Of a DNA stretch of 62,917 nt, positions 17,867 through 43,073 are shown in pieces. The notes beneath the pieces were generated by a model. The model was not told the DNA's origin. It ran no database searches and was given only the letters and a program-made list of their open reading frames with translations. Position 1 is the stretch's first letter, and each line of letters opens with the position of its first letter. A program made the translations under genes and the position numbers. The stretch is from an uncultured Dehalococcoidia bacterium (GTDB taxonomy: Bacteria > Chloroflexota > Dehalococcoidia > Lucifugimonadales > UBA826), in NCBI GenBank assembly GCA_964602845.1, contig CAZRSW010000011.1, forward strand, positions 1 through 62,917, in the 5' to 3' direction.

Positions 17867-19654
17867 TTATGTGTCACTCGATTCGACCAACTCCTGATAG
17901 TCAACCATTTTCCGAAACATACCCTGGCGCTCATATAATTCTTGGAATGATCCCTCTTCCACTATCTTCCCTTCATTTAATACTAGTATTTGATCAACAG
18001 ATCTTATTGTTGATAGACGATGGGCGATGATTACCATGGTTATTTCACCTTTCATCTCTTCAATATTAGTTTTGATTTCACTTTCTGAAATAGAATCCAA
18101 AGAACTCGTAGCTTCATCCAAAATCAACATTTGAACATCCTTGTAAAGTTCCCGCGCAATATTGATCCGCTGGCGTTGGCCGCCTGAGATATTCAACCCG
18201 TTGTCTCCTAATGACGTTTCCAATCCGTGTGGCAACCCGTTGACAAAATCTTCCAGCAACGACTTATTTAATACTGAATCCATCTTTTTATCATCTGCCC
18301 CTGACAACTCATTTTTCGATTCCCATAGATTAATGTTATTCCTGATGGAATCGGTAAAAATAACATTTTCCTGGGTTACATATCCGATCAAACTTCTAAG
18401 ACTATTTTGCTTAATATTTTTATAATCTATACGACCCATCTTGACAGAACCTTTGTCTGGCTTCACCAAGCCCGTTAGTAGACTAGCGATGGTAGTCTTG
18501 CCTGATCCGGAATCACCAACAATAGCAATAGATGAACGTGGAGGGATCTCAATACTAATTCCTTTCAAGACAAGGTTACTGCCGTCATAACTCTGATACA
18601 CATTGTCTAAAGTGATCGTCTGAGAAAAATCTGGCATGACCCCTTCAGGATTATCAATCTCAAGATTCTCACTCAACTCCTTCTCTAACTTGTTGAAGAC
18701 CTGGATACTACCTGCAGATCCTACAAAGTCCCGATAGTCTGCATACCCAGAAAGAGCATATGCAACAGCTCTCCTGATAAGGAATAGTAGGAATATTACC
18801 TGCACAAGTTCATAGCCCATAAGGTGAACGTTATAAAAGAGAACGACGGCAGCCAATAAAATAGTTATCAACTCCGTTGTCTTGCTAGTAAAAGCATTAA
18901 GAACAGATTGACGAAACAAAATATGAGCCTGCTCAGTTATCGCCCCATTAACACGCCCGAGAATCCTACCGGCAGAATTGGTAGATTTAAGATATTTGAA
19001 ATTTGTTAGCGATTGGATCAACCCAGATTGCAGATCCTCGTTGTTCTTAGTAGCCCTGATGGAATAATCCCGCGTCAAACGATTAATTTTCCTCACTAAG
19101 AATAGAACAGGCAATCCACTTAGAATAACAACGCTGGTAACGAAAGGACTGATCCAAAGAGGCAAGGATATATATACGATAGTGAATCCAAAGGATACGA
19201 GCATTCGCATGCAAGACCTAAAGGCAAAGGCTACCCGATTGTACTCAATGGTTACCGCGTTGGTAAAATATCCTAGTTCTTGAGAAGCAAAAAAGATGTA
19301 ATTTGCTGAAAATATCTTCTCTACCAATCTACTTTTGGTTGTAGCTAATAAATTGGCAATCAACCCACTGGAAAATATCTCCTGATAAACAAGGAAGGCT
19401 GTTCTGAATAAAAAAATACTGACCATCAACAGTAACGCCAGTGGAAGACTGTAGTCTATTCCGAACCATGAGGCTACAGAATTAACTAACTCCGTCAGTT
19501 GGCTAGAGCCTGACCCCGTTTCCAATATAGGCAAAATCAAGCCTACACTCATACCATCGAGAAGTGCCGCTACAAGGATGAACGCAAGCCAAACGTAAAG
19601 CCGATAACCAATCGCTGACTTCAAATAACCAAGGAATGAGAAAAGTTCTTTCAA
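17867..19654 (-). CDS. ABC transporter with fused permease and ATPase (MsbA/PglK-like lipid-linked glycan flippase)
   Basis: N-terminal TM helices, Walker A GDSGSGKT, signature ISGGQRQR, Walker B ILDEATS, IAHRLST. Confidence 0.92.
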   Translation of the reverse strand: MKELFSFLGYLKSAIGYRLYVWLAFILVAALLDGMSVGLILPILETGSGSSQLTELVNSVASWFGIDYSLPLALLLMVSIFLFRTAFLVYQEIFSSGLIANLLATTKSRLVEKIFSANYIFFASQELGYFTNAVTIEYNRVAFAFRSCMRMLVSFGFTIVYISLPLWISPFVTSVVILSGLPVLFLVRKINRLTRDYSIRATKNNEDLQSGLIQSLTNFKYLKSTNSAGRILGRVNGAITEQAHILFRQSVLNAFTSKTTELITILLAAVVLFYNVHLMGYELVQVIFLLFLIRRAVAYALSGYADYRDFVGSAGSIQVFNKLEKELSENLEIDNPEGVMPDFSQTITLDNVYQSYDGSNLVLKGISIEIPPRSSIAIVGDSGSGKTTIASLLTGLVKPDKGSVKMGRIDYKNIKQNSLRSLIGYVTQENVIFTDSIRNNINLWESKNELSGADDKKMDSVLNKSLLEDFVNGLPHGLETSLGDNGLNISGGQRQRINIARELYKDVQMLILDEATSSLDSISESEIKTNIEEMKGEITMVIIAHRLSTIRSVDQILVLNEGKIVEEGSFQELYERQGMFRKMVDYQELVESSDT

Positions 19655-20947: not shown

Positions 20948-22636
20948 CTATTTTATGCGTCTGGGATCTAGCCCGTATAATTTCATCATGAATTCTTTTA
21001 AAACCAGCGAGTCCGTATGCCTCTTGTCAAGATCTTTGAAAACATACCTGAGAAAGCCAAATCCTTTTTCTACCGCAACTGAATGAGTCTTGTACAATCT
21101 TATATGGCGCTTAATTTGTAAGTATTTTCTTATCACTATGCCCAAGGCCGGAACGGATTGGAGGTGATTCAACAATTTCCTCCGACTCAAACCCGTACCC
21201 CACCTGCCAGTTTCCAATCGCTTCACTATAGGTTCCCGACTCCAATGAGTTAACGGACGATGGCTAGTGAACATTTCCTCAGGGTAGTTTTCAGACACGG
21301 ATTTTTGATACAGATACTGGCCTTTTTTAAGTCTCAACGGAACCTTGCGCCAAAAATCCATTATTTTTCTGTCCCAAAGAGGCATAGCCCATGAGTACCC
21401 GAAGTATTCATGCTGTCGAACCAGATTAACTATATATTTCGATTGCCTCTCTTGCCATTCCCAGTGCTCATATATCGATGCTATATATTCCTCCGAACTA
21501 TTCCCATCGAATTTAGTTACACTTTTGATCTTTTCTTCGGCCACAGTTCTCAATTGAGGCCTATTAATCAAATTTTCCCAAAGTGAGTAATGTTTAGTAC
21601 ACATCAGTTTGATAAAATCTGTTGGGTCCGAATTCAGCCTAGGATCAAATATCACCTTGAGATGATTACCCGCCACGAAATCACCCGATATCCCTGTAAC
21701 AAACACCGCATCTTTGGCTGCCAAACCTTTATCCCTGATGATATTCAGACTAGGCCAGTCCCAATAATGAGGTAACGACACACCATTTGAGGCAAATTTC
21801 CAGTAGTCATGTAAATTTTCATCATTCAGCGTATCCGCCCATAAGTGCCCAGAATATTCTGTAAGACTCCAACTGTAATCGAAATCCTGCGCCACAGCAC
21901 GTGCCCCGATAGCTTCTTTAGAATCCTTTTTACCGTAGGTGTAACAAATCACGTTGTTATAATGAAAGTACCTGAGCATTCCAACAACTAACTTGGAATC
22001 TAAGCCAGCGCTTAATGCAACTACCACCTGGCGACCATCAAGGAATGCAATGAAACGTCTGAAAACATCTTCCAAGATTTTAAAATATTCCGATGAAAGA
22101 TCTTCTTCAGTTTCACCGGAATCATATTCACACAACCACTCATAGTACCGTTGGGTCTTTAAGAAGACTCCAGGCTTCCAAAATAATATCTCCCCCGACT
22201 GTAGCGAGCTCAATTCACTATATATCGTCAACGACCCAGAAACGAGACCAGACAAAGCTAATTCTGCAGTGGCTTCCTCGTTTAGTTCCTCCGAATCCGA
22301 TGCTATCAGAGTTACGTCATCTGATATTTCAAACTTGCAGGGATCGCGACGATAAGTCAGTGGTATAGAACGTACCCGGTCAACTGCAGCGTAAAGTTGG
22401 AATCCATCCCAGGCAATAAAAGCAAAATTGCCGTCTATTCTATCCAAGAACTGAACCAGACTATTCTCACTCTCAAGATGCCTACAAACATGATCAGCAA
22501 AGGATTCACCACGTAGTACATCCCCTCCATAATAGACCCATCCCGTAGCCCAAACGGAGTAGGCTCCTGACTTAACGGACCTCCAGTCCCGTTTCTCAGA
22601 AAATTTTAGTCTTTGCCGGAGTTCGTCGGGTTTCAT
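20948..22636 (-). CDS. Asparagine-synthase-related protein lacking the N-terminal catalytic Cys
   Basis: DGNFAF, AVDRVRSIPL.Y, PP-loop LSAGLDS, TGISGDF, WQERQSK, MPLWD; no N-terminal CGI. Confidence 0.82.
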   Translation of the reverse strand: MKPDELRQRLKFSEKRDWRSVKSGAYSVWATGWVYYGGDVLRGESFADHVCRHLESENSLVQFLDRIDGNFAFIAWDGFQLYAAVDRVRSIPLTYRRDPCKFEISDDVTLIASDSEELNEEATAELALSGLVSGSLTIYSELSSLQSGEILFWKPGVFLKTQRYYEWLCEYDSGETEEDLSSEYFKILEDVFRRFIAFLDGRQVVVALSAGLDSKLVVGMLRYFHYNNVICYTYGKKDSKEAIGARAVAQDFDYSWSLTEYSGHLWADTLNDENLHDYWKFASNGVSLPHYWDWPSLNIIRDKGLAAKDAVFVTGISGDFVAGNHLKVIFDPRLNSDPTDFIKLMCTKHYSLWENLINRPQLRTVAEEKIKSVTKFDGNSSEEYIASIYEHWEWQERQSKYIVNLVRQHEYFGYSWAMPLWDRKIMDFWRKVPLRLKKGQYLYQKSVSENYPEEMFTSHRPLTHWSREPIVKRLETGRWGTGLSRRKLLNHLQSVPALGIVIRKYLQIKRHIRLYKTHSVAVEKGFGFLRYVFKDLDKRHTDSLVLKEFMMKLYGLDPRRIK

Positions 22637-24228
22637 GCCAAATACTGCTCCATATACGATGGGTCATTGAGAGCCCGTGACACCTCGATCGATTCCCGCA
22701 GTTCATCCCATATAACCTGTAATCGATTCCTTTCGTCAAACCAGGCCTCAACAAACGAGCATCGCCTAGACAAAACTTCTCGTGCAGTCTGACTATAAGT
22801 CTCATATCCATGATTGATCAAGATGACTGGTTTACCGGTAGCAATAGCAAGCCCAAAAGTATTGGTCGAGGAATATTCAAACAAAAATGCATCGGCTGTG
22901 TCCGCAATTTCTTCAAATGACTGGGTCAGCAAATTGGCACCTAATCCATCTATAAATTCGCTGGGCACCTCAATCGATGAAGCTGGATGTGGTTTAAGGA
23001 GCATATCATATCCCCATCCTTGCATTTTATTTATCAACCTATACTGCCAGTCTATCTGAACAATATCTGGGATCATGGGGGTGAAATGAATTCTTTCTCC
23101 TGCGTAAAACATCGGCAGATACATTACCGACCTTATCTTCCTTCCAGATGTCATGCCTTTTCTCTTGTCAGAAAATATGGAGTATTCGCTCTTGTATTGG
23201 CGTTTATCATCGGGAGTGATTATGGTTGGCAACTTCGGACCAGAAATAAAGTCGGCTTGCATACCTTCCTCAAGCCCCCTCCTATTGGCTACACTCGACG
23301 TGACATAAAAGTCGCATGACTCAAATTCGAATGCACTTGGTACAGGCGTAACCAAATGGCCTTGGCCTTGAGCATGCTCAAACCCTGTATTTTCCCCACC
23401 AGTCAAACGTACAGCATTCCTTAATATGCGCGTCCATACAGAGCCTCCATGACCGGTCCATAACCTAGTCGGTACCTTATCCGGGATCGAGGTCAAATAG
23501 GTCAGCCTCGCCCCGCAATTCGATAATCCAGTGGAAAGCCAACGACTAAAATAGTCCGATATTTCCCTTGTCATCATCCCCTCAGACTTAGAAAAAGACT
23601 CATTCACAGCTGACAAAGCCTTGTCTAAAAACGTGGAGCTGATCTCAAATTCTTTTCTAAACCTTTCAGATTCTCCTAATATATTGGGGAACCATACAGA
23701 TCGAGATTTCAGCCTCACTATTTGTTTTGACGCGCGCGCTTGGTGGTCTATCAAAGGTAGCCGCTGAATCGTCGTTATCCCACTAGCCTGGTCACGGCGC
23801 AGAAGCTTACCTAGACCGAGCCCATTCCATTCAAGAAACACCCGTGTATGATACAGAGTGTCTCTTCCTACACGCCGATGCTGGGGAACCCCGGAAACCA
23901 ACTGCTCAAGGAGTTTTGGCACGCCAGTATTAGCAACGGAGTCTGACACAGTCTCTGGCAACAACATCGGGGCAAGAGAACTATTGGAATTAGTCTTTTG
24001 TAGTCTGAGCGATAATGCGGAAGCCCGGTACTTACCTATTATCTCAACAATTAATGGGACCATAAGTATCCTGAGCAAATCTCTCTCGAGCTGAGACGCA
24101 TCCGACCTACACAAAGCAGTCAACGACTTTAAGGCCGTATCTCTCACCAAATTCAACTCGTCCCTAGAAATCGGCCAGGTGAGATCCTTGACCCCATTTT
24201 CATCAAATGCCAATTCGTTCGTATTCAA
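22633..24228 (-). CDS. Hypothetical protein, probable GT-B transferase (HP motif; candidate nonulosonate transferase)
   Basis: 531-aa ORF overlapping its neighbour by 4 nt; C-terminal LLKPHP...SST..F..A...GKPVI. Confidence 0.5.
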   Translation of the reverse strand: MNTNELAFDENGVKDLTWPISRDELNLVRDTALKSLTALCRSDASQLERDLLRILMVPLIVEIIGKYRASALSLRLQKTNSNSSLAPMLLPETVSDSVANTGVPKLLEQLVSGVPQHRRVGRDTLYHTRVFLEWNGLGLGKLLRRDQASGITTIQRLPLIDHQARASKQIVRLKSRSVWFPNILGESERFRKEFEISSTFLDKALSAVNESFSKSEGMMTREISDYFSRWLSTGLSNCGARLTYLTSIPDKVPTRLWTGHGGSVWTRILRNAVRLTGGENTGFEHAQGQGHLVTPVPSAFEFESCDFYVTSSVANRRGLEEGMQADFISGPKLPTIITPDDKRQYKSEYSIFSDKRKGMTSGRKIRSVMYLPMFYAGERIHFTPMIPDIVQIDWQYRLINKMQGWGYDMLLKPHPASSIEVPSEFIDGLGANLLTQSFEEIADTADAFLFEYSSTNTFGLAIATGKPVILINHGYETYSQTAREVLSRRCSFVEAWFDERNRLQVIWDELRESIEVSRALNDPSYMEQYLA

Positions 24229-29966: not shown

Positions 29967-31022
29967 TTATTGGTTCTCTCGATTAGCCCTCAAATAGTTG
30001 TCCATTTCACCAATATCCATCCAATACTCATGAATCGGAAAACCTACTACCCGATCACCCTCGATGATAAGGGCACTAATAAGGTCGGTCATATCGTAGT
30101 GTTTATCGTTAGGAATTTGATTAAGGGAAGTCCTACTAATAACATAGATGCCCGCATTCACAAAATGATGAAACGTCGGTTTTTCCTCAACAGATAAGAC
30201 TATTCCATTGTCCATGCGAACAACGCCAAACGGTACAGTATATTGGTGATCCTTAACTCCAACTGTCATTGATGCAACAGAATCCTTGTGAAATTCAACC
30301 ATAGATGCAAAATCGACGTCTGTCATGATATCCCCGTTAACCACTAGGAGATCTTTACTTGCTATATCTAACCAACTCAAAGCTCCCGCAGTACCCATCG
30401 GTTGATTTTCCTCTATATAGTTAATATCTACACCAATCGCAGAACCATCGCCAAAATATTCCTGGATAGATTCTCTTTTATAAAACGTGGTGATATGTAT
30501 CTTAGTGACACCATACTCCTTCAATCCTAATAAGATTCTTTCTAACAAGGGCTTGCTTCCTACCTCCAGCATCGGTTTAGGTTTGTTCTTGGTGAGGGGC
30601 ATCAGCCTTTTACCGAAACCACCAGCCATAATGACTGCCTCCAAATCATCGATTACATTCAAATCTATTTCTCGGTATGTCAGAACATTAACCACTCTAT
30701 CTTGATCATCCAAGAGTGGGATTTGTCTTATGCCCGCCTTCGCCATAATGTTCTTAAGTTGAACTCTGTCGGTCGACTCGTGGGCACTTACAGGATTCCG
30801 AACTCTATTAGCAGCTCTCCGATCTTTTATCACACTAACTGGCTCTGATATGTCGTGCCCATCCAGAATGGCTCTCCGTAAATCACCATCCGTGATCACA
30901 TCAAGCAATCTTCCTTCTTGATCAATAACAATTGCAGCCTTTATAGATTCTCTCTCTATGCAGGCCATAGCATCCTTAAACGATGCGGTAGGGGATATAA
31001 ATAATCTTGAACTATTTTTCAT
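29967..31022 (-). CDS. CBS-domain sugar-phosphate nucleotidyltransferase (PtmE-like, legionaminic acid clusters)
   Basis: N-terminal CBS pair (TDGDLRRAIL), then MAGGFGKRL.PLT..PKPML, GTAGAL, NGD, YWMDIG. Confidence 0.88.
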   Translation of the reverse strand: MKNSSRLFISPTASFKDAMACIERESIKAAIVIDQEGRLLDVITDGDLRRAILDGHDISEPVSVIKDRRAANRVRNPVSAHESTDRVQLKNIMAKAGIRQIPLLDDQDRVVNVLTYREIDLNVIDDLEAVIMAGGFGKRLMPLTKNKPKPMLEVGSKPLLERILLGLKEYGVTKIHITTFYKRESIQEYFGDGSAIGVDINYIEENQPMGTAGALSWLDIASKDLLVVNGDIMTDVDFASMVEFHKDSVASMTVGVKDHQYTVPFGVVRMDNGIVLSVEEKPTFHHFVNAGIYVISRTSLNQIPNDKHYDMTDLISALIIEGDRVVGFPIHEYWMDIGEMDNYLRANRENQ

Positions 31023-32514
31023 CGACCTGAAAATGATGAGGATAAAATTTACACAAAGCTTCTTTTGCTACCTGTGCCAGCCCTTCCTCATCCTCCGGGC
31101 TCAATTTCGGATATTCTATTCCCACCATTTCAAAAGAATTATCTATCTGTGCCTTGTTAAGACTTTTTCTCGATAAATCAAACGAAGAATCACCATCTTT
31201 AATCATAAGTAGATCATTCAATCCTTTAAGAGTAGAGGTGTAGTCAGAAGCAAACCGAACTGTTGGTAGCAAATTCACGAACTGATGACATCCAAATGAA
31301 AGAACCCGTCTGCTCATATTAATAGCCTCGATAGCAGCAGTTCCAGTTATTGTTGCCGTGACTTGTGATGCCATTATCCATTCCCACGGATGTACTTTGG
31401 GGTGCGCAAGGACAACATTCGGCATCCTCCTGAGGTGTTCATAAAGCCCCTTTGATCTTATTCCAAAACTAAAAGGTTGCTCTTTCACAACCAACAAAGT
31501 ATTAGCGGGTGAAGCTTTCGAGATCCAAGATATCATTTCCCAAGAATTATTAAATTCAGGGGATACTGAAAGCAATGCGACCTCTGGCTCTAAATGGAGA
31601 GGTATATATATCAATCTATACTCCTCTGAGATATCATCCGGCGTAACCCCATTCTTAACAAAGTATTTGTACATGGCCGGCCTCTTCAGAATTGGTTTAT
31701 ACCAACCTAAGTTAATCGCACCACGGCCTGGAGGACGTTTTCCAATACTGAGGCTTCTCCTATATAATCTTGACAGCCAGATTCTGACAAACCAGTACGT
31801 ACTTTTCCTCAACCTTCTGAGCACCGTCAACAGAGCGCCATTGTAAGAATAATCGACCTTCTGGTGTAGCATTTTTGAAACAGAGACTTGTTTGTAATCA
31901 GACTGAATTGATCCACTCAACAATTGAGGGTTTTTAACATGAGTTAAGACAGCTTTACTGAGACCAGGGTTATCTGTATAGCCATTCTCCGCCCACAAAT
32001 ATCTATCTCCAAATTTAGCATTCACAAGGCTTAAATCAAGTACATTATTGGACTTGGCTACAAGACTTAGCACCCGTTCTATATACATACCCACCACAAC
32101 GTCCGGTTTAATCTCTGCAAAAATCCTTTCGTACGTCTTAAACTGAGATAAAACGTTACGTAGTTTCTGAGAATGATTCCACCGCGCCCTTTTCAAATCA
32201 GGATGAAGATCAGCATTAAAAATATATCCCTTTCCTAATCCTCTCTCATGGGACATGATCAACGCGAAATTTTCCCCGTATTTCTTTTCTCTTTCAAGAC
32301 ATTCTTCCAGTAACAATTCATCCTTGATGTCATGAGTGTTATCTAAGGATGTATCGATGTTTGCAGAAAGATGAGGACTAATTTGTTGTATAAGGGATAC
32401 CAATGAGGGTCTTGTTACAAAAGTAACATTGTGGTCATTAGAGAGCAAACTGCCAAGTTGAATTAAGAAGGTGGCTTTTGCGGGTGTAACTTTAATAAGT
32501 ATATGTTTTTTCAT
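31012..32514 (-). CDS. Capsule_synth/KpsS-like GT-B protein (candidate CMP-ulosonate transferase)
   Basis: YIPLHLEPE...L.VKEQP...TITGTAAIEA pattern of the capsule-biosynthesis family. Confidence 0.65.
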   Translation of the reverse strand: MKKHILIKVTPAKATFLIQLGSLLSNDHNVTFVTRPSLVSLIQQISPHLSANIDTSLDNTHDIKDELLLEECLEREKKYGENFALIMSHERGLGKGYIFNADLHPDLKRARWNHSQKLRNVLSQFKTYERIFAEIKPDVVVGMYIERVLSLVAKSNNVLDLSLVNAKFGDRYLWAENGYTDNPGLSKAVLTHVKNPQLLSGSIQSDYKQVSVSKMLHQKVDYSYNGALLTVLRRLRKSTYWFVRIWLSRLYRRSLSIGKRPPGRGAINLGWYKPILKRPAMYKYFVKNGVTPDDISEEYRLIYIPLHLEPEVALLSVSPEFNNSWEMISWISKASPANTLLVVKEQPFSFGIRSKGLYEHLRRMPNVVLAHPKVHPWEWIMASQVTATITGTAAIEAINMSRRVLSFGCHQFVNLLPTVRFASDYTSTLKGLNDLLMIKDGDSSFDLSRKSLNKAQIDNSFEMVGIEYPKLSPEDEEGLAQVAKEALCKFYPHHFQVDEK

Positions 32515-32544: not shown

Positions 32545-33249
32545 CTAATTTCGGGAGGCTATAATGAATTTCCTATGTCCACCCTGACTACCAGTTTTCG
32601 ACTCCCATTGAGTAACAATACGTAATTCTTTGGATATAGACTCGGAAGCAGCCATCATTGCATCTTCAAAAGGATCATTGGTATCAGGAATATAGGAAGT
32701 AGATTCATAAAATAAATGACCCTTGGAACTCAGAAGACCCCTCACTTTCCTGAAGTATTCATTGCTAGAAACCCTCTCTTTGCCATCCTCAGTATAAAAT
32801 GAAGCCATACTAAGAATCAGGTCATATTTAATATCAGATACAAAGTCATCAAATGTAGAATTAAAAAAAACTGCTTCGTCTGTCAACCCCAAATGCTCAG
32901 CAGTCAACCGTCCTATCCTGTTTAAATAAGGATTCCATTCCACCCCATGAGCGAGCTCGCAACGAATGGCTAACTCCACGGTGAAAAACCCAAAGTTAGA
33001 CCCTATATCGAGAATTTTACTGTTTGCCTGACATAGTGAATCCAAACCATATTCCTCGATACGCTTCTCGACAGACCAACGCCGCCCAATATAATCAATA
33101 CGTTCATAGGTCTGATAAGGAGTATCGAAGTTGTATGAACCTTTGTTGTGGATAATTTCTTCTTCCAAAATAGCATCGATCCTATTTTTCAGATCATTCT
33201 TAGTAAATTCAATGGGATGCACTATTTTACTCCTTCGTTGTGAACGCAT
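32545..33249 (-). CDS. Class I SAM-dependent methyltransferase
   Basis: ILDIGSNFGFF motif I, GVE, YDLILS. Confidence 0.82.
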   Translation of the reverse strand: MRSQRRSKIVHPIEFTKNDLKNRIDAILEEEIIHNKGSYNFDTPYQTYERIDYIGRRWSVEKRIEEYGLDSLCQANSKILDIGSNFGFFTVELAIRCELAHGVEWNPYLNRIGRLTAEHLGLTDEAVFFNSTFDDFVSDIKYDLILSMASFYTEDGKERVSSNEYFRKVRGLLSSKGHLFYESTSYIPDTNDPFEDAMMAASESISKELRIVTQWESKTGSQGGHRKFIIASRN

Positions 33250-34178: not shown

Positions 34179-34913
34179 TCACAACTCAATTAAATGCTCT
34201 GCCAAAAGACTCTTAATACAAGCTACTTCGCCCTGAACCGAAAGGATCACGTAAATCATATCAGGTAAGGCTTCAATCATTTCATAATGTGAACATAGAA
34301 AGTCGTTCAACTTTAAAACAGTATTAAGTAATTTCAGATCATGAGTTTCATGGTATTTCGTCATAAGAGCTATAGAAAGTAGCGCATACGTCGCCATTGA
34401 AGCGGGTTCGTCCGACCCCGGTTTCATGCCTGAGGTATAAATAGAAAATAATTTCTTGTTGACCTCAAATCGTCTCAGGAAACCCATTATTTGTGCATTA
34501 TAATCTTGATTGGAAACCGCCTCTCCTTCAACAATAGTTTTCGTGGCCGCGAAAAGAACCGTCTCAGAATTGACTAAGGAAACTGCCTCCTTAAATTCAG
34601 ATCCAGAAACCGTGCAATCTTGTGTATATTCTTTATGTAAATAAGCAATCCTCTTCTTAACAGGAGAACTCAATAAATTATCGATCCTAGTTATCCAGTT
34701 AGGTATCTTATCAGCCTGACTAATTTCTTCCCCCGCCAGATATCTAGCTGACACTTCAATGAATTTATGCTCATATAACAAGCTGTGATGTTCTCTTGAA
34801 GCCACATATGAGTTTAGGAAATCGATGCCCTGGTAAGACGTGTACATATAGGCTTTAGAATCGGATACAATGCTTGGCCCAATATATTGATAGGCTGACC
34901 TCAATCGACTCAC
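34179..34913 (-). CDS. Hypothetical protein
   Basis: 244-aa ORF overlapping the kinase stop by 4 nt; helical C-terminus (RRFEVNKKL...LNTVLKLND); no family recognised. Confidence 0.6.
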   Translation of the reverse strand: MSRLRSAYQYIGPSIVSDSKAYMYTSYQGIDFLNSYVASREHHSLLYEHKFIEVSARYLAGEEISQADKIPNWITRIDNLLSSPVKKRIAYLHKEYTQDCTVSGSEFKEAVSLVNSETVLFAATKTIVEGEAVSNQDYNAQIMGFLRRFEVNKKLFSIYTSGMKPGSDEPASMATYALLSIALMTKYHETHDLKLLNTVLKLNDFLCSHYEMIEALPDMIYVILSVQGEVACIKSLLAEHLIEL

Positions 34914-35431
34914 GAGATAAACCCCAATCGATCAACTGCTTCAATTATCTTATTGGCTGGATCTTCATAAGATTCAAGGCAGACGTTATTATCAATAACT
35001 AGATGCGGATTAGAGGGAGGAGAAAATTCTAAGTCAACTCCCACCACGTCCTTAATATCACCTCGTAATGCTTTTTCATACAGCCCCTTTTTATCTCTCG
35101 TCTTCAACACCTCCATTGATACCGACAAAAATACTTCAAAATAGTTAGTTATATTTTGCCTATTCCAAATCCTTGATTCCTCGAATATGGATAGAATTGC
35201 ACAGACAACATCTATACCTTGAGAGTCCAGGAATTTACAGAACTTGGAGATCCTATCAGCATTCCTCCTACGATCTACTAAACTATGTCCAAGATCATTT
35301 CCCATGATCTGCCGTATTTCATCACCATCAATAAATACAACATTGGGCTTCCGAGTCTTAATTAATTTAAATACTTCTCTTCCAATGGAAGTCTTACCTG
35401 AACCTGATAGGCCCACTAGCCAGATGACCAT
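34910..35431 (-). CDS. Adenylyl-sulfate-kinase family protein; probable cytidine diphosphoramidate kinase (Cj1415-like)
   Basis: P-loop GLSGSGKT, DGDEIR, RDKKGLY, VVGVD..F..P; fourth gene of a Cj1418-1417-1416-1415-order cassette. Confidence 0.85.
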   Translation of the reverse strand: MVIWLVGLSGSGKTSIGREVFKLIKTRKPNVVFIDGDEIRQIMGNDLGHSLVDRRRNADRISKFCKFLDSQGIDVVCAILSIFEESRIWNRQNITNYFEVFLSVSMEVLKTRDKKGLYEKALRGDIKDVVGVDLEFSPPSNPHLVIDNNVCLESYEDPANKIIEAVDRLGFIS

Positions 35432-35447
35432 ATACTCCCCTTACACA

Positions 35448-36227
35448 TCACCTGTTGATCCTCAGGATTCCATCATTATTTTCAACTATTTCATTGGCGA
35501 TTTCATAATCCTTTATCGAATCCACTTCAACCCAGCCCCCACTCACCGGCACCTCCTTAACAGGATGCCCTAAAGTGATAAGACATTGGAGAACATCCGT
35601 CATATATAGATCATCAAATTTTTTTATAGTTGACGAATCACTAAAGAAGGGCTTCTCAAACATCGATTCCAAGCTATCCACAAGATACTTAACCCCGTTT
35701 GCTCTAAAAACAGTGAGGCCTATATATTGACCTTGGATTTCTTCGATATTTTGGGTTCTCTGTCCAATTTCAGTAATAAACCCATCCTTAGCAACTTTAA
35801 AGGATTCAGCATCATCTAACACATCTTCAAACCGCCTCTCCCAATAAGGCTTCCAATCCTTATCAACAATCACTCCTATCTCATCCCCCCCAGTGAGTAA
35901 ACTCTCTAAAACCTCAGGTTGATAGAGTATGTCTCCATATGAAACTATGAAACCTTCATCAAAATAATCCAATGCACACCACAGCGTAGCAACCATATTC
36001 GAGTGGAGATAATTTTCGTTGTCTATATACTGAAGTCCCGGCCTATTAATCTGATGCGACATATGGCCTCGGACGACAATAATTTCCTGTATACCCACAC
36101 TCCGTGCCACCTGTATCTGCCAATCTAAAATTGATCTTCCACTGACCGGTACCATTACCTTAGGCATACTATCCGTGAGCGGCGACAACCGAGACCCAGT
36201 ACCTGCGGCTAATATTATTAACTTCAC
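35448..36227 (-). CDS. LicC-like cytidylyltransferase; probable CTP:phosphoglutamine cytidylyltransferase (Cj1416-like)
   Basis: LAAGTGSRL.PLT..PK, NMVATL, SYGDI.Y, W..RF...L.DAESF, GQYIGL, YMTD.LQ, W.EVDS. Confidence 0.85.
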   Translation of the reverse strand: MKLIILAAGTGSRLSPLTDSMPKVMVPVSGRSILDWQIQVARSVGIQEIIVVRGHMSHQINRPGLQYIDNENYLHSNMVATLWCALDYFDEGFIVSYGDILYQPEVLESLLTGGDEIGVIVDKDWKPYWERRFEDVLDDAESFKVAKDGFITEIGQRTQNIEEIQGQYIGLTVFRANGVKYLVDSLESMFEKPFFSDSSTIKKFDDLYMTDVLQCLITLGHPVKEVPVSGGWVEVDSIKDYEIANEIVENNDGILRINR

Positions 36228-36236
36228 AATAGTAAT

Positions 36237-36923
36237 TTAAACAGCCGACAACCATCTTTTAATCAATAATTCATCGGTGGCAGTATCAAATCCAGCTCTT
36301 TCTGGATGCCATTGAACACCCAAGATGGGAAGATCAGGATGGAACAAACCCTCGACAATACCATCTTCAGTTACGGCAAAAGGCTCCAGTTCACTGGAAA
36401 CAGTGGAAATATGAACGGCATGATTGTGAAACGAATTAGTTAAAATACGCTTTCTGCCAAAGTAGTCTGAAAAATCTGGGTCAACGATGCTCAACTCATG
36501 ACTGTTTGCTACGTGCATGTCAGCGCCGCCACATAGATTTGTCGTGTCCCTAACGATGGTCCCCCCAAAAAAGACATTTATGATTTGCATTCCTCTACAA
36601 ACACCAAGCAGTGGTATCCTATCTTTTACAGCACGTTCGATGATCTGAAATTCGGTCTTATCGCGCAATTCACTAACATCTCCCTGATCCTGGAATTCGT
36701 CGGTTACCCCAACCGAACCTACGTTGTTGCCCCCCGTCAGCAAAAATGCGTCCACACCAACGTCATTGAAACCCAGGTTAACTCCAAATGGCGTATTAGG
36801 AATTAGAACAGGTGTCAACCCTAGTTTGCCCAAAAAATTCAACCAATCATGACTGATAGCGTCCCGCATTTCCTTGTGAGGGAAACTCTCGACCACTCTC
36901 ATTGAAACCCCCACAGTCAACAT
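36237..36923 (-). CDS. Class I glutamine-amidotransferase/peptidase C26; probable gamma-glutamyl-CDP-amidate hydrolase (Cj1417-like)
   Basis: E.RDAI..DW, LTGGN, R...E, GVCRGMQ (catalytic Cys), NSFH, QWHPER. Confidence 0.85.
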   Translation of the reverse strand: MLTVGVSMRVVESFPHKEMRDAISHDWLNFLGKLGLTPVLIPNTPFGVNLGFNDVGVDAFLLTGGNNVGSVGVTDEFQDQGDVSELRDKTEFQIIERAVKDRIPLLGVCRGMQIINVFFGGTIVRDTTNLCGGADMHVANSHELSIVDPDFSDYFGRKRILTNSFHNHAVHISTVSSELEPFAVTEDGIVEGLFHPDLPILGVQWHPERAGFDTATDELLIKRWLSAV

Positions 36924-40021: not shown

Positions 40022-40846
40022 TCATACCGATTTTTCTTCAGGTGCCCTGACAGTATTTGCATGTCGGCTAGTCCTATGAACGCTCAATAGCCTGTTAGCC
40101 AACTCAAACTGACTGATAATTTTCAGAATTCCATCTACCACCATGATCAATACTACTACTCCGAAAACGTATTCCCTCAGACCATCTATCGTCGCTAGTA
40201 TCAAAGCAATCAAAATGGAGTCGAAAAGAACATCACTAGGTAGCTGCGGAATAATCGCTTTGGAATCAAGATCTTTTATCTGGGCTAACCATTCAACACT
40301 CTTAAGAGTATCCGCCCTGTACCACTCTCTATGAAAACTGAACCTAGCTCGGATATATTCAGCAAACAACCAGAAAAATCCTGTCGATAGACCTCCACAC
40401 AACAGAAATATCTTATCGGTACTCAAATATAGGGACATACCATAGAAAATCGGCATTATAGATATGACCAAAGCATCAACCGCCCCATCAAGAAATTTGC
40501 CAAAATAAGTGGCCTTGTCATTCGCCCTGGCAATATTGCCGTCGACAGCATCAAGGACAACAGCAAACTGGTATATGAGACTTCCAACGAGCCACCATAT
40601 CCACGTACCAGGTAGCAACAATAACAAACCCAGCAGGGAAAATATCAAGCCAAGCACTGTTACCAAATTCGGTGTCAGGCCAAGCATTAGAAAAAATGGT
40701 GTAATAAGAAATGACACCGGCCTTATCCAGTATCGCCATAAAAACCCTGTTTGACTGGTATGATCAAAATTGTCTTTAGCTCTGTTGTAAGTACGCGAAT
40801 AATTTACGTAAAATAGCCTAAACATTTCAATCAACTCATCACACAA
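40022..40846 (-). CDS. CDP-alcohol phosphotransferase family membrane protein
   Basis: TPNLVT and the complete signature D-AV-DG-NI-AR-x8-G-KFL-D-GAV-D; several TM segments. Probable start at MFRLF. Confidence 0.9.
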   Translation of the reverse strand: MCDELIEMFRLFYVNYSRTYNRAKDNFDHTSQTGFLWRYWIRPVSFLITPFFLMLGLTPNLVTVLGLIFSLLGLLLLLPGTWIWWLVGSLIYQFAVVLDAVDGNIARANDKATYFGKFLDGAVDALVISIMPIFYGMSLYLSTDKIFLLCGGLSTGFFWLFAEYIRARFSFHREWYRADTLKSVEWLAQIKDLDSKAIIPQLPSDVLFDSILIALILATIDGLREYVFGVVVLIMVVDGILKIISQFELANRLLSVHRTSRHANTVRAPEEKSV

Positions 40847-40966: not shown

Positions 40967-42118
40967 TTAGGTTCCAGATCCTGCAAAATAACTCTCCAGA
41001 ACGCTTTCCCTCACCGTATCCAAAGTACAACAATGTATACCACCACTTATCAAATACGAATGTCGGAACTTTGTCGGTACGACCGTAAAACCATACTGTT
41101 CCAAAGTCTTGATAAGGTTGATTTGACGATCGTCTACTATCACTGTATTGGGATCAAGAGACAAGAAATTCATGCCAATCCATTTGGACGATATTGATCC
41201 AAGATTACTCTCAATGCCCATACTTAGGAGCTCATTATAGATTGGCAATCTCACCTTATGGTGGAACTCTTGAGTAGCCTCTGGAATAGGTTCAATATCA
41301 TGAAAATATATCTTTTCCCATTCATCAAAAATAGCCGGGCAGTTGCTAGTATCTACCCGATCTCCGTTCAACAAAACTAATCCTGGCCGAAGACATAAGA
41401 CTGTAGAATCAATATGGCTCGACTTGTAAATCTTATCGGTGGTATGGACTTTATATTCTTCCCCTAAAATATGCTGCAGCCATCTTGCTCCTAGATAATT
41501 GCCAGATCGAGACACAAGATAAAGTAGGTCAGTACCCATACGAACAGTATTAGCAGCCTCAAATAAGATTTCATCTTCCATAAGCTTCACATATTTTTGG
41601 CCATCGTCATATTGATCTCGACCATCCTCCATATATGAGGTCATGTGTTCAGAACTAAATCGTGGTTTAGGACTCGATACCCAACGAAATCCATTTTCTT
41701 TCATATATTCATAAAATATGTCATACAATCCGATAGGTTCAAAGAAACGGTGTTGCTCCTGCGATGGTGATTCTATGACCATGTCACCAACAACCAAATG
41801 TAAATCCCTCATGTTATATATATGCTCCGCTGCTCCAGCTATAAATGGAGTCTGGAATTCGACCCCCACAGAGTCTAAATTAGGGCGGTGCACCTTCACA
41901 TTGAAATCCTCGAATATCTTGTTCAAACCTTCAAGATCTTCAGACACCTCATCGGATAACCATTTCGGGTAGGCCTGAGCGCTAAGATCTTTGGCCTTAT
42001 TCAATACATTTTCAGTCGGGATTTTATTGGACAAAAACCTAAGCGACGCTGGCCCCTCGGCTCTTCCAAGTATCACCTCCTTCAAAGTATCCCATTCATT
42101 ATGACTATTTATTTTCAT
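40967..42118 (-). CDS. L-arginine amidinotransferase (glycine/inosamine-phosphate amidinotransferase family)
   Basis: NSHNEWD.LKEVI.G, RD, FEAAN, HIDST, GMN.LS, GGIHCCTLD..R (catalytic Cys/His). Confidence 0.88.
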   Translation of the reverse strand: MKINSHNEWDTLKEVILGRAEGPASLRFLSNKIPTENVLNKAKDLSAQAYPKWLSDEVSEDLEGLNKIFEDFNVKVHRPNLDSVGVEFQTPFIAGAAEHIYNMRDLHLVVGDMVIESPSQEQHRFFEPIGLYDIFYEYMKENGFRWVSSPKPRFSSEHMTSYMEDGRDQYDDGQKYVKLMEDEILFEAANTVRMGTDLLYLVSRSGNYLGARWLQHILGEEYKVHTTDKIYKSSHIDSTVLCLRPGLVLLNGDRVDTSNCPAIFDEWEKIYFHDIEPIPEATQEFHHKVRLPIYNELLSMGIESNLGSISSKWIGMNFLSLDPNTVIVDDRQINLIKTLEQYGFTVVPTKFRHSYLISGGIHCCTLDTVRESVLESYFAGSGT

Positions 42119-42125
42119 TATCGCT

Positions 42126-43073
42126 CTACATTCCTCCTTTTTGGGATCCAGACGTTATCATCTGCAAAATGTTTGCATGATCCTCTCTATTAAGTTCCAA
42201 ATTATTGGACTCGTAATCTGAGGACTGCGGTGTAAAACAATTATTGGCGCGAAACCCACAAATGATCCCCAATTTCCGTAGTATCTCAAGAGTCTCATGA
42301 TTGTAAGAATCCGCCGGATGTGCCATGGCTAACACTTCAGACTCACATACTTTTTGGATGTGGTGAAGATTTCTACGATATTCATTCCATTGATCTTGGT
42401 AGGGCAGTGTAGCGATCACCATAGGATGGGAGTAGGAATGCAGTCCAATGACATGTCCGAGATGACGTAGTTCCAACAGATTCTCATTGGTCATCCACAT
42501 ATGCCGACCTAAATCTTCTTCTTCGATCCCATAATCCTGAATGATTTGATCCATGAAGCCCTCAAAGGACTTCGGCGTTAAAACCTGATCTCTAATTATT
42601 CGGAATTTTGCGTCTTCAGTGGAGTAAAACGGTGCTGCTGAAATTACTTTGTTCAAACTCCGCTCATTGATCAATGTCAAAGCTTTATTTGAAAAAGGCG
42701 ATTTATCCACTTTTTCGAAAAACAATTCATAAAATTCGTTTATCTCATCGAAATAGGAACACCGGAAACGCCGATACATCTCGAATTTTGATCGAAAACC
42801 CTCAAACACACTGGAATAAATGAACCAGAATGCTTGGATCCCATACTCCTCCATAACTGGTAGAGCAACTTCAAACTGGCACAATAAAGAGTCATCGAAC
42901 GTGAGGCATATATCCTCATTTTTCAGCTGATGTGAACTTAATCGACCCAACCATTCATAAGGCGTTATAATTCTTTCCGGGCCAATATATTCAATGATCT
43001 GCCTAAACTCCGCCGCCGAAATAGATCCTTGACCACGCAAATGGCGTCCACCATCATGAAGATGGTGAAACAT
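42126..43073 (-). CDS. Polysaccharide deacetylase (NodB/CE4 family)
   Basis: MFHH, CLTFDD, IGLHSYSHP, MAHP. The true start may be the upstream in-frame CTG at 43106. Confidence 0.85.
   Translation of the reverse strand: MFHHLHDGGRHLRGQGSISAAEFRQIIEYIGPERIITPYEWLGRLSSHQLKNEDICLTFDDSLLCQFEVALPVMEEYGIQAFWFIYSSVFEGFRSKFEMYRRFRCSYFDEINEFYELFFEKVDKSPFSNKALTLINERSLNKVISAAPFYSTEDAKFRIIRDQVLTPKSFEGFMDQIIQDYGIEEEDLGRHMWMTNENLLELRHLGHVIGLHSYSHPMVIATLPYQDQWNEYRRNLHHIQKVCESEVLAMAHPADSYNHETLEILRKLGIICGFRANNCFTPQSSDYESNNLELNREDHANILQMITSGSQKGGM

Follow-up and report, generated by a model that had tools for sequence, protein, structure and literature searches.

A gene on the minus strand of a 62,917-nucleotide stretch of DNA from an uncultured Dehalococcoidia bacterium (contig CAZRSW010000011.1, assembly GCA_964602845.1; the whole stretch is here called the window) is predicted to encode an intact integral-membrane enzyme of the CDP (cytidine diphosphate)-alcohol phosphotransferase family. 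By its sequence, this target protein belongs to a rare, new subfamily of this known enzyme family, with about 250-280 residues, and not to the housekeeping phospholipid synthases. Its neighbourhoods in several phyla indicate a functional tie to gene cassettes that make nucleotide-activated tetrahedral anions. The genes beside it in the window appear to encode a complete Campylobacter-type donor pathway, with Cj1418-, Cj1417-, Cj1416- and Cj1415-type members. We favour, with somewhat less than even confidence, the reading that the target transfers the phosphoramidate group in its locus.

The open reading frame (ORF) of the target would yield 274 amino acids if started at TTG, but an in-frame ATG at 40825 is the probable start and gives 267 amino acids with the N-terminus MFRLFY. 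The protein matched PF01066 (CDP-OH_P_transf; E 6e-14, 53.1 bits against a Pfam cut-off of 22; 55.3 bits in a six-frame search of the genome) and no other Pfam family, DUF2972 included. The signature D-x2-D-G-x2-A-R-x8-G-x3-D-x3-D, which we take to mark CDP-alcohol phosphotransferases, was complete in the translation (DAVDGNIARANDKATYFGKFLDGAVD). It reads DAVDGNIAR-x8-G-x3-D-x3-D, with the motif positions D92, D95, G96, A99, R100, G109, D113 and D117. Six of these (D92, D95, G96, R100, G109 and D113) were invariant across 35 sequences of the subfamily. Outside the family motif, the subfamily shared R35-P36 (in RPxSF), K110-F111, F164/W168 and the C-terminal R251-x-S253, of which R35, K110, R251 and S253 are subfamily-specific basic or polar residues, invariant or nearly so. 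Hydrophobic segments were present in the sequence, and an AlphaFold2 model built on the 35-sequence alignment was all-helical with nine helices (predicted local distance difference test, pLDDT, 91.2; predicted template modelling score 0.85). In a Foldseek search of the Protein Data Bank (PDB) with this model, the top 17 matches at E ≤ 0.001 were all members of the family, led by AF2299, IPCT-DIPPS and the phosphatidylinositol-phosphate (PIP) synthase PIPS (E 2.5e-5 to 7e-4, 17-22% identity).

The initial annotation had held that grouping with PgsA, PIS or DIPP synthase would speak against a new function. Such enzymes were the nearest by fold, but the target failed every family cut-off. Its NCBIfam scores were 56.8 for PIP synthase (cut-off 170), 56.6 for archaetidylinositol-phosphate synthase (180), 45.7 for IPCT-DIPPS (580), 30.9 for PgsA (109.1) and 29.6 for a further equivalog (304). 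The genome has a second PF01066 gene, of 207 amino acids, on contig 10. None of 40 relatives of the bacterium has a full-length ortholog of the target, since the best match (E 1.5e-11) covered only part of a 223-amino-acid protein. Among 400 genomes sampled across the phylum, 12 matched the target at E ≤ 1e-15, two of them at nearly full length (G420, 9.8e-31; G206, 4.9e-29). A word-indexed search of 5.8 billion proteins gave 25 relatives at E ≤ 0.001, four of them at E ≤ 1e-24. HMMER on 1.84 billion representatives gave 4471 matches at E ≤ 0.001, 267 at ≤ 1e-10 and 9 at ≤ 1e-30.

An intact CDP-alcohol phosphotransferase had been reported just upstream of a glutamine kinase, and both assignments were borne out. 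The gap between the two genes is 99 bp, with the kinase downstream on the same strand. The kinase, the only copy in the genome, scored 837.4 bits (838 in the genome search) with NF004508/PRK05849, whose cut-off is 501. For the hydrolase that follows, the best NCBIfam match was NF045546, gamma-glutamyl-CDP-amidate hydrolase (98.9 bits, under its cut-off of 250). The last member of the module, of the APS (adenosine 5'-phosphosulfate)-kinase family, is the only PF01583 gene in the genome; its model PRK05541 is presumably the one that stands for Cj1415, and in a quick tree it grouped with kinases from glutamine-kinase operons. A scan for promoters and terminators around the target gave no signal beyond chance.

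In the accessible part of one report, the Campylobacter transferases for O-methyl phosphoramidate (MeOPN) are described as a conserved N-terminal region of 244 residues, a transmembrane segment and DUF2972/PF11186 (PMC5808241). The window is contig 11 of a 35-contig genome of 1.88 Mb, 96.7% complete, and no part of it matched DUF2972 even at E ≤ 1, in agreement with the initial annotation, which had recognised no Cj1421/Cj1422-type gene. Profile searches of the genome likewise gave no Sulfotransfer_1, Sulfotransfer_3, TagF-like (PF04464) or ATP sulfurylase (PF01747) protein.

The association of the family with glutamine kinases extends to other phyla. A scan of one genome per species gave at least 706 stretches with at least 689 confirmed relatives of the glutamine kinase, and the best 80 loci, none of them from Campylobacter, were analysed. 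BLAST with proteins of the window matched the amidotransferase-type hydrolase in 70 of the 80, the nucleotidyltransferase in 70, the APS-kinase-family kinase in 56, and the downstream proteins FT245, u244 and unk500 (Table 1) in 25, 11 and three, respectively; the target itself was matched in six. Clustering added a second subtype of 292 amino acids, here called subtype b (L016, L034, L049 and L067), to the subtype a of the target, for a total of eight loci with a CDP-alcohol phosphotransferase. A hidden Markov model (HMM) built from all collected members, which refound these eight by construction, raised the number to 11 with L063, L090 and L085. Fifty of the 80 genomes, 193.8 Mb in all, contain 175 PF01066 matches, and at this rate chance alone would put about 1.23 into the 80 loci (1.36 Mb). 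The Poisson probability of eight or more is about 4e-5, a rough figure because the counts come from different detection methods and related genomes do not count as independent.

Glutamine-kinase operons contain three or more divergent subtypes, which often directly abut the module (L066, L072, L090, L085, L016, L034 and L049). For example, a 265-amino-acid member lies directly upstream of the glutamine kinase in L090, an order like that of the window, and one of 238 amino acids directly follows the nucleotidyltransferase in L085. Some of these operons have neither unk500 nor nonulosonate genes. In L016, L034 and L049, which are without a 3'-kinase, a cytidylate kinase (PF02224, E 1.6e-56) immediately precedes subtype b, an order that fits release and recycling of cytidine monophosphate (CMP). 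In these three loci (L016:13775-15396, L034 and L049), a long insert interrupts the motif of subtype b, and its last Asp is replaced by His.

Relatives of the target were also sought in metagenomes, which gave 54 loci, many on contigs of only 1-3 kb. Genes of the phosphoramidate module were found in 14 of them, ATP sulfurylase and/or pyruvate kinase in nine, and either of these sets in 21; the APS-kinase family was found in 14, the unk500 family in 21 and a fused ABC (ATP-binding cassette) exporter in 13. In the 21 loci of at least 5 kb with close relatives (at least 72 bits), the numbers were 11 for phosphoramidate genes, seven for sulfurylase or pyruvate kinase, 16 for either and 12 for unk500. 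Among nine loci of at least 5 kb with weaker relatives (below 72 bits), a single one had phosphoramidate, sulfurylase or pyruvate kinase genes. Ten subtype-a loci had flanks of 4 kb or more on either side, and nine of these carried an APS-kinase-family gene of at least 80 bits. The tenth, L117, had one of 153 amino acids and 43 bits beside sulfurylase and pyruvate kinase. Typical gene orders were glutamine kinase, amidotransferase, nucleotidyltransferase, kinase, one further gene, FT245 and target relative (L093, L113 and L066); target relative and glutamine kinase (L115, L122, L124, L072 and the window); and kinase, sulfurylase, pyruvate kinase and target relative (L094 and L106).

One of the two near-full-length relatives within the phylum stands in another setting. 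In G420 (L159, contig 9), the genes in order are a cytidylyltransferase, the target relative, a fusion of phosphoenolpyruvate (PEP) mutase with cytidylyltransferase, a two-part thiamine pyrophosphate (TPP)-dependent decarboxylase of the phosphonopyruvate decarboxylase type and an iron alcohol dehydrogenase. To judge from these gene families, the cluster is a phosphonate pathway; therefore, relatives of the target accompany other CMP-activated small phosphorus groups as well.

From the family, motif, modelled fold, gene order and conserved association of the target, we infer its donor, acceptor and chemistry as follows. Glutamine kinase, cytidylyltransferase, CDP-glutamine hydrolase and then the 3'-kinase would act in this order to make the donor. 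The phosphoramidate would come from five domains whose coding regions directly follow the target gene, and the target would transfer it, either alone or as one of several transferases. Transfer would take place on the cytoplasmic side of the membrane, where the Asp-rich motif would hold the metal-bound diphosphate of cytidine diphosphoramidate, probably in its 3'-phosphorylated form, and an acceptor hydroxyl would attack the beta-phosphorus. The product would be RO-P(O)(O-)-NH2, with release of CMP or cytidine 3',5'-bisphosphate (pCp). A lipid-linked sugar, for which a nonulosonic acid residue is plausible, or else a lipid would probably serve as acceptor.

The initial annotation had suggested such a transfer by the target. 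In support of it are the full donor pathway, the enrichment across phyla, and the genome searches, which found none of the other recognisable transferase types. Several observations weigh against it. First, the co-occurrence with Cj1418 homologs, although well above the chance expectation at 8-11 of 80 loci, is far from general: within the sequence at hand, the HMM found no CDP-alcohol phosphotransferase in 69 of the 80, nor was there one in most loci with the kinase-u244-FT245(-methyltransferase) submodule. The family thus cannot be the general phosphoramidate transferase. Second, the absence of Cj1421/Cj1422, which had been taken as telling, is not special to the window. Of 50 other glutamine-kinase genomes, hand-picked from the 80 and mostly with longer loci, none had DUF2972 at E ≤ 0.001 in a search without positive control, so that by this domain the lack appears to be the rule outside Campylobacter. 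Third, ATP sulfurylase, pyruvate kinase and APS kinase stand beside subtype a with no glutamine kinase in reach in L094, L106, L111, L117 and L126, and the two kinds of context, phosphoramidate and sulfate, are intermixed on the protein tree of the transferase. For example, the transferases of L121 and L126 are 51% identical and the genes downstream, from the PtmE-like gene and ABC exporter onward, are syntenic, but the upstream cassettes differ. Fourth, the fourth Asp of the motif is replaced by N or G in a few members of the subfamily.

Fusions of the transferase also speak less clearly than they might. In two proteins, P0003 and P0029, a CDP-alcohol phosphotransferase is fused to an APS kinase. 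On the quick kinase tree, their kinase domain grouped (SH-aLRT, Shimodaira-Hasegawa-like approximate likelihood ratio test, 100) with the sulfurylase-adjacent kinases of L106, L111 and L126, and not with the kinase of the window; the apparent link to Cj1415 was therefore set aside and the fusions were dropped as evidence for a phosphoramidate donor. Another member of the target family is fused to a DegT aminotransferase, so the fusions may merely reflect neighbourhood.

The most frequent neighbour of subtype a is unk500, present in 24 other loci and often adjacent even on 2-kb contigs. Taken with the sulfate cassettes, this company means that the role of the target may be tied to the glycan backbone and not to the donor. 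The partnership with unk500 itself points to a shared backbone function. The strongest rival explanation, which we nevertheless consider unlikely, is that the target acts together with unk500 and the fused ABC exporter to make or prime an anchor of phospholipid type, or a phosphodiester link, for a nonulosonic-acid glycan. The donor would then be CDP-diacylglycerol or another housekeeping CDP-alcohol, the phosphoramidate and sulfate cassettes would be interchangeable decorations, and another protein, such as u244, would transfer phosphoramidate. KpsS and KpsC act on phosphatidylglycerol. The relative of the target and the KpsC/KpsS-like gene are often translationally coupled or adjacent (L058, L065, L097, L118 and L123-L126), and the unk500 profile aligns with the catalytic region of KpsC: against the KpsC structure 6mgd it gave E 0.0022, with its invariant PLHxEPE aligned to that region. 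Fused ABC exporters, found in 13 of the 54 loci and in the window, the mixed contexts with retained downstream synteny, and the conservation of the kinase-u244-FT245 trio in loci without a CDP-alcohol phosphotransferase are also consistent with an anchor. However, this explanation leaves unexplained the APS-kinase-family gene in nine or 10 of the 10 well-covered subtype-a loci, as well as the divergent subtypes in operons with neither KpsC-like nor nonulosonate genes (subtype b with cytidylate kinase; L090 and L085). Many subtype-a loci are without a KpsC-like gene (L066, L093, L113, L114, L121 and L129), and a synthase dedicated to a common lipid would seem superfluous in Proteobacterial hosts.

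The sulfate contexts suggest a wider donor range. In its fullest form, which we judge quite improbable, subtype a would comprise unrecognised membrane transferases for 3'-phosphorylated nucleotide anhydrides, with 3'-phospho-CDP-amidate as the donor here and 3'-phosphoadenosine 5'-phosphosulfate (PAPS) or a related donor in sulfurylase loci. They would place phosphoramidate or sulfate onto lipid-linked nonulosonic-acid glycans or a lipid carrier at the inner membrane face, and subtype b, which has no 3'-kinase and stands with cytidylate kinase, would use plain CDP-amidate. As an alternative to a phosphoramidate-specific enzyme, a subtype a that takes both donors and acts in sulfurylase loci as an unrecognised membrane sulfotransferase is, in our judgement, a distinct long shot. 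In both contexts, only the APS-kinase family is a constant companion, and it is also the one fused in P0003 and P0029; the order kinase, sulfurylase, pyruvate kinase and target relative in L094 and L106 fits. In L094, L111, L117 and L126, the scanned ORFs contained no canonical sulfotransferase domain, but the scan covered part of the ORFs in these loci, and several ORFs without a family there could be the sulfotransferase. The residues R35, K110, R251 and S253 could bind an extra phosphate. On the other side, one fold would have to take adenine and cytosine nucleotides and sulfur and phosphorus centres, which is without precedent. The cassette of sulfurylase, pyruvate-kinase paralog (sometimes fused) and APS kinase is itself a feature of nonulosonate loci (L094, L106, L111, L117 and L126, and also L035, L052 and L055), at times together with the glutamine-kinase module and a sulfatase-family protein.

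Very improbable is another CDP-linked product of the module as donor, that is, CDP-L-glutamine, which the initial annotation had offered as an alternative, or an N-formylated or methylated derivative made by FT245 and the methyltransferase encoded after it. FT245 keeps the formyltransferase His and Asp invariant, and the accessible text of a report on Clostridioides difficile describes the tailoring of a CDP-linked donor before transfer (bioRxiv 10.64898/2026.02.12.704994), but the amidotransferase-type hydrolase in 70 of the 80 loci argues that CDP-glutamine is consumed. An ordinary phospholipid synthase (PgsA, PIP synthase, PssA or DIPPS-like) that lies in the glycan island by chance is hardly credible: PIP synthase, archaetidylinositol-phosphate synthase and IPCT-DIPPS are the nearest named families by sequence and fold, but every score is far under the curated cut-offs, the 40 relatives keep a different 223-amino-acid enzyme and lack the target, the genome holds its separate 207-amino-acid PF01066 gene, and the glycan-locus setting of the target is conserved over several phyla.

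Other candidates for the phosphoramidate transferase were considered. Sulfotransferase-fold and TagF-like proteins encoded after the glutamine-kinase module are natural alternatives in other loci: a Sulfotransfer_3 protein adjoins the module in L088 (9513-11258), a Sulfotransfer_1 protein in L071 (3743-4633; its family also in L035, L052 and L055) and a TagF-like protein in L081 (14403-15887; its family also in L012 and L013). In the window, u244 has no Pfam or NCBIfam family, and its AlphaFold2 model (pLDDT 80, all-alpha) gave no Foldseek match in the PDB at E ≤ 0.001, only weak partial alignments to alpha/alpha-barrels. FT245 was disfavoured. Its family profile matched methionyl-tRNA and sugar N-formyltransferases (best PDB match methionyl-tRNA formyltransferase, E 2.3e-11), and H129, H131 and D166 are invariant in its family; N-acyl or formyl tailoring is therefore likelier than phosphoramidate transfer. 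Possible substrates of FT245 are the P-NH2 group and an amino sugar. An invariant His stands in FT245 where Asn is usual, beside the retained formyltransferase His and Asp. A complex prediction for the target with the APS-kinase-family kinase of the window scored 0.00, which is neither for nor against binding.

Table 1. Features of the window around the target gene and in the glycan island, in order of position
Feature	Position	Strand	Evidence or remark
Fused ABC exporter	17867-19654	-	In the glycan island
Large ORF without clear family	20948-22636	-	See text
Large ORF without clear family	22633-24228	-	See text
CBS+NTP_transferase gene	29967-31022	-	See text
unk500, 500 aa, soluble, distant KpsC/KpsS-like (PF05159, GT107-type) transferase	31012-32514	-	Protein atlas, homologs
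Probable methyltransferase	32545..33249	-	Weak NCBIfam/Pfam methyltransferase matches, E 3e-4 to 7e-3
FT245, formyltransferase fold, 245 aa	33432..34169	-	PF00551 E 5.5e-7; conserved after u244
u244, all-alpha, 244 aa	34179..34913	-	Homologs in 11/80 loci; directly after the kinase also in other phyla
APS-kinase-family kinase, Cj1415-like	34910..35431	-	NF004041/PRK05541, 185.6 bits (cut-off 127)
NTP_transf_3 nucleotidyltransferase, Cj1416-like by position and conservation	35448..36227	-	PF12804 E 2e-15
Class-I/C26 glutamine amidotransferase-type hydrolase, Cj1417-like	36237..36923	-	PF07722 E 9e-35
Glutamine-kinase homolog, Cj1418-type, 999 aa	36923..39922	-	Residues 197-998 match NF004508/PRK05849
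Extra N-terminal domain of the glutamine kinase, about 196 aa	39335-39922	-	Weakly nucleotidyltransferase-like, NTP_transf_3 E 0.0019
Target, predicted CDP-alcohol phosphotransferase-family membrane protein, subtype a	40022..40846	-	PF01066, motif, AlphaFold2, Foldseek
383-aa protein	40967-42118	-	Weak C-terminal arginine-deiminase/amidinotransferase-type match, E 3e-4
Polysaccharide deacetylase	42126-43073	-	Upstream of the target

All genes of the window from about 200 to 52,700 are on the minus strand and form one very large glycan-biosynthesis island, headed by a NusG-like gene and a helix-turn-helix (HTH) gene. The island has many GT4 glycosyltransferases, AsnB-like amidotransferases and two blocks of nonulosonic-acid genes (LegB-like dehydratase, NeuB, NeuC, CMP-sugar synthetase, PseB-like, DegT and CBS+NTP-transferase). 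The CBS+NTP_transferase gene was rejected as a maker of the donor because it belongs with the nonulosonate genes; it resembles the PtmE-type sugar-1-phosphate guanylyltransferase of legionaminic acid synthesis. Of the two large ORFs without clear families, one is faintly polysialyltransferase-like (E 0.11) and the other weakly AsnB-like. No Pfam family was assigned to unk500 itself at the default threshold; its nearest protein-atlas clusters were PF05159 (score 0.98), which its homologs matched at E 8.5e-16. A homolog of the methyltransferase is present in L048 (204 bits). The 383-amino-acid protein, encoded directly upstream of the target, had no homolog across 134 comparison loci (L011-L145).

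The glutamine kinase carries its extra N-terminal domain in addition to the separate Cj1416-like gene. In other loci, 28 of 76 glutamine-kinase ORFs have at least 950 amino acids, and 14 of these, mostly from Acidobacteriota, are extended by an APS-kinase domain instead. As a maker of a CDP-alcohol for the target, this domain was rejected: subtype-a loci mostly have short glutamine kinases of about 780-840 amino acids, and there is therefore no association between domain and target. The trio of kinase, u244 and FT245, often followed by a methyltransferase, keeps the same order in distant phyla (L011, L015, L038, L059, L066 and L090). A gene of the inositol-monophosphatase/CysQ family, which would fit removal of the 3'-phosphate from a nucleotide by-product, was seen in the glutamine-kinase loci L020, L027, L038 and L058.

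Phosphoramidate transfer is the one step of the pathway still without in vitro demonstration even in Campylobacter, whose MeOPN transferases are without in vitro characterisation according to the accessible part of one report (PMC12409886). Glutamine-kinase modules occur in at least 689 species genomes, and the Campylobacter-type transferase domain was seen in none of the 50 searched. If our favoured reading is true, a textbook family of lipid synthesis would gain a new type of donor, with a P-N bond and perhaps a 3'-phosphate. The attachment of phosphoramidate in some environmental bacteria would be explained, and release of CMP or pCp would be a simple target for an assay. The companionship with sulfate-activation cassettes, if functional, would suggest that membrane sulfotransferases of a new type exist. 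In one literature collection, no paper was found that proposes a CDP-alcohol phosphotransferase for phosphoramidate transfer. In Borg elements, such a gene near MeOPN-like genes was interpreted as phospholipid-related (10.1101/2024.11.05.622173).

With the solved CDP-alcohol phosphotransferases, AF2299 (4o6n/4o6m), IPCT-DIPPS (4mnd) and PIP synthases (5d91, 6wmv and 6h5a), the target shares the Pfam family, the eight-residue Asp/Gly/Arg motif and, in its model, the helical membrane fold (template modelling score 0.5-0.6 in Foldseek). The same chemistry, in which an alcohol attacks the beta-phosphate of a CDP-linked donor, would be expected. In contrast, the target is 17-22% identical to them and under all NCBIfam equivalog cut-offs, and it has its own N-terminal RPxSF, GKF(L)DG and C-terminal (L)N(V)HRxS. 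It is encoded in a glycan-decoration operon, and its proposed donor would have NH2 in place of the alcohol, perhaps with a 3'-phosphate. To our knowledge, the KpsS/KpsC lipid-anchor system of group 2 capsules includes no dedicated CDP-alcohol phosphotransferase. A GT107-like protein partners the target family as in that system, with ABC exporters near, but the match of unk500 to KpsC is very distant (E 0.0022) and the exporter of the window is a fused half-transporter, not KpsMT.

The proposed job of the target resembles that of Cj1421 and Cj1422, which transfer phosphoramidate from the Cj1415-1418-type donor to a sugar hydroxyl, as described in the accessible parts of two reports (PMC3907429, PMC5808241), but the target is not homologous to them. 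The PAPS pathway of ATP sulfurylase, APS kinase and sulfotransferase follows the same logic of a 3'-phosphorylated nucleotide anhydride as donor, and APS-kinase-family genes accompany subtype a in phosphoramidate and sulfate contexts alike; canonical sulfotransferases, however, are soluble and P-loop-like, and none was found in the genome of the target. The accessible text on FtaD of Clostridioides difficile presents it as a TagF-like CDP-N-methylthreonine:GlcNAc phosphotransferase whose operon has a cytidylyltransferase and a methyltransferase (bioRxiv 10.64898/2026.02.12.704994). Unlike the target, FtaD is soluble, lacks the classical motif, and has a CDP-amino acid as donor and a glycoprotein as acceptor. 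It is a precedent for a CDP-activated small group that is placed as a phospho-group on a glycan hydroxyl.

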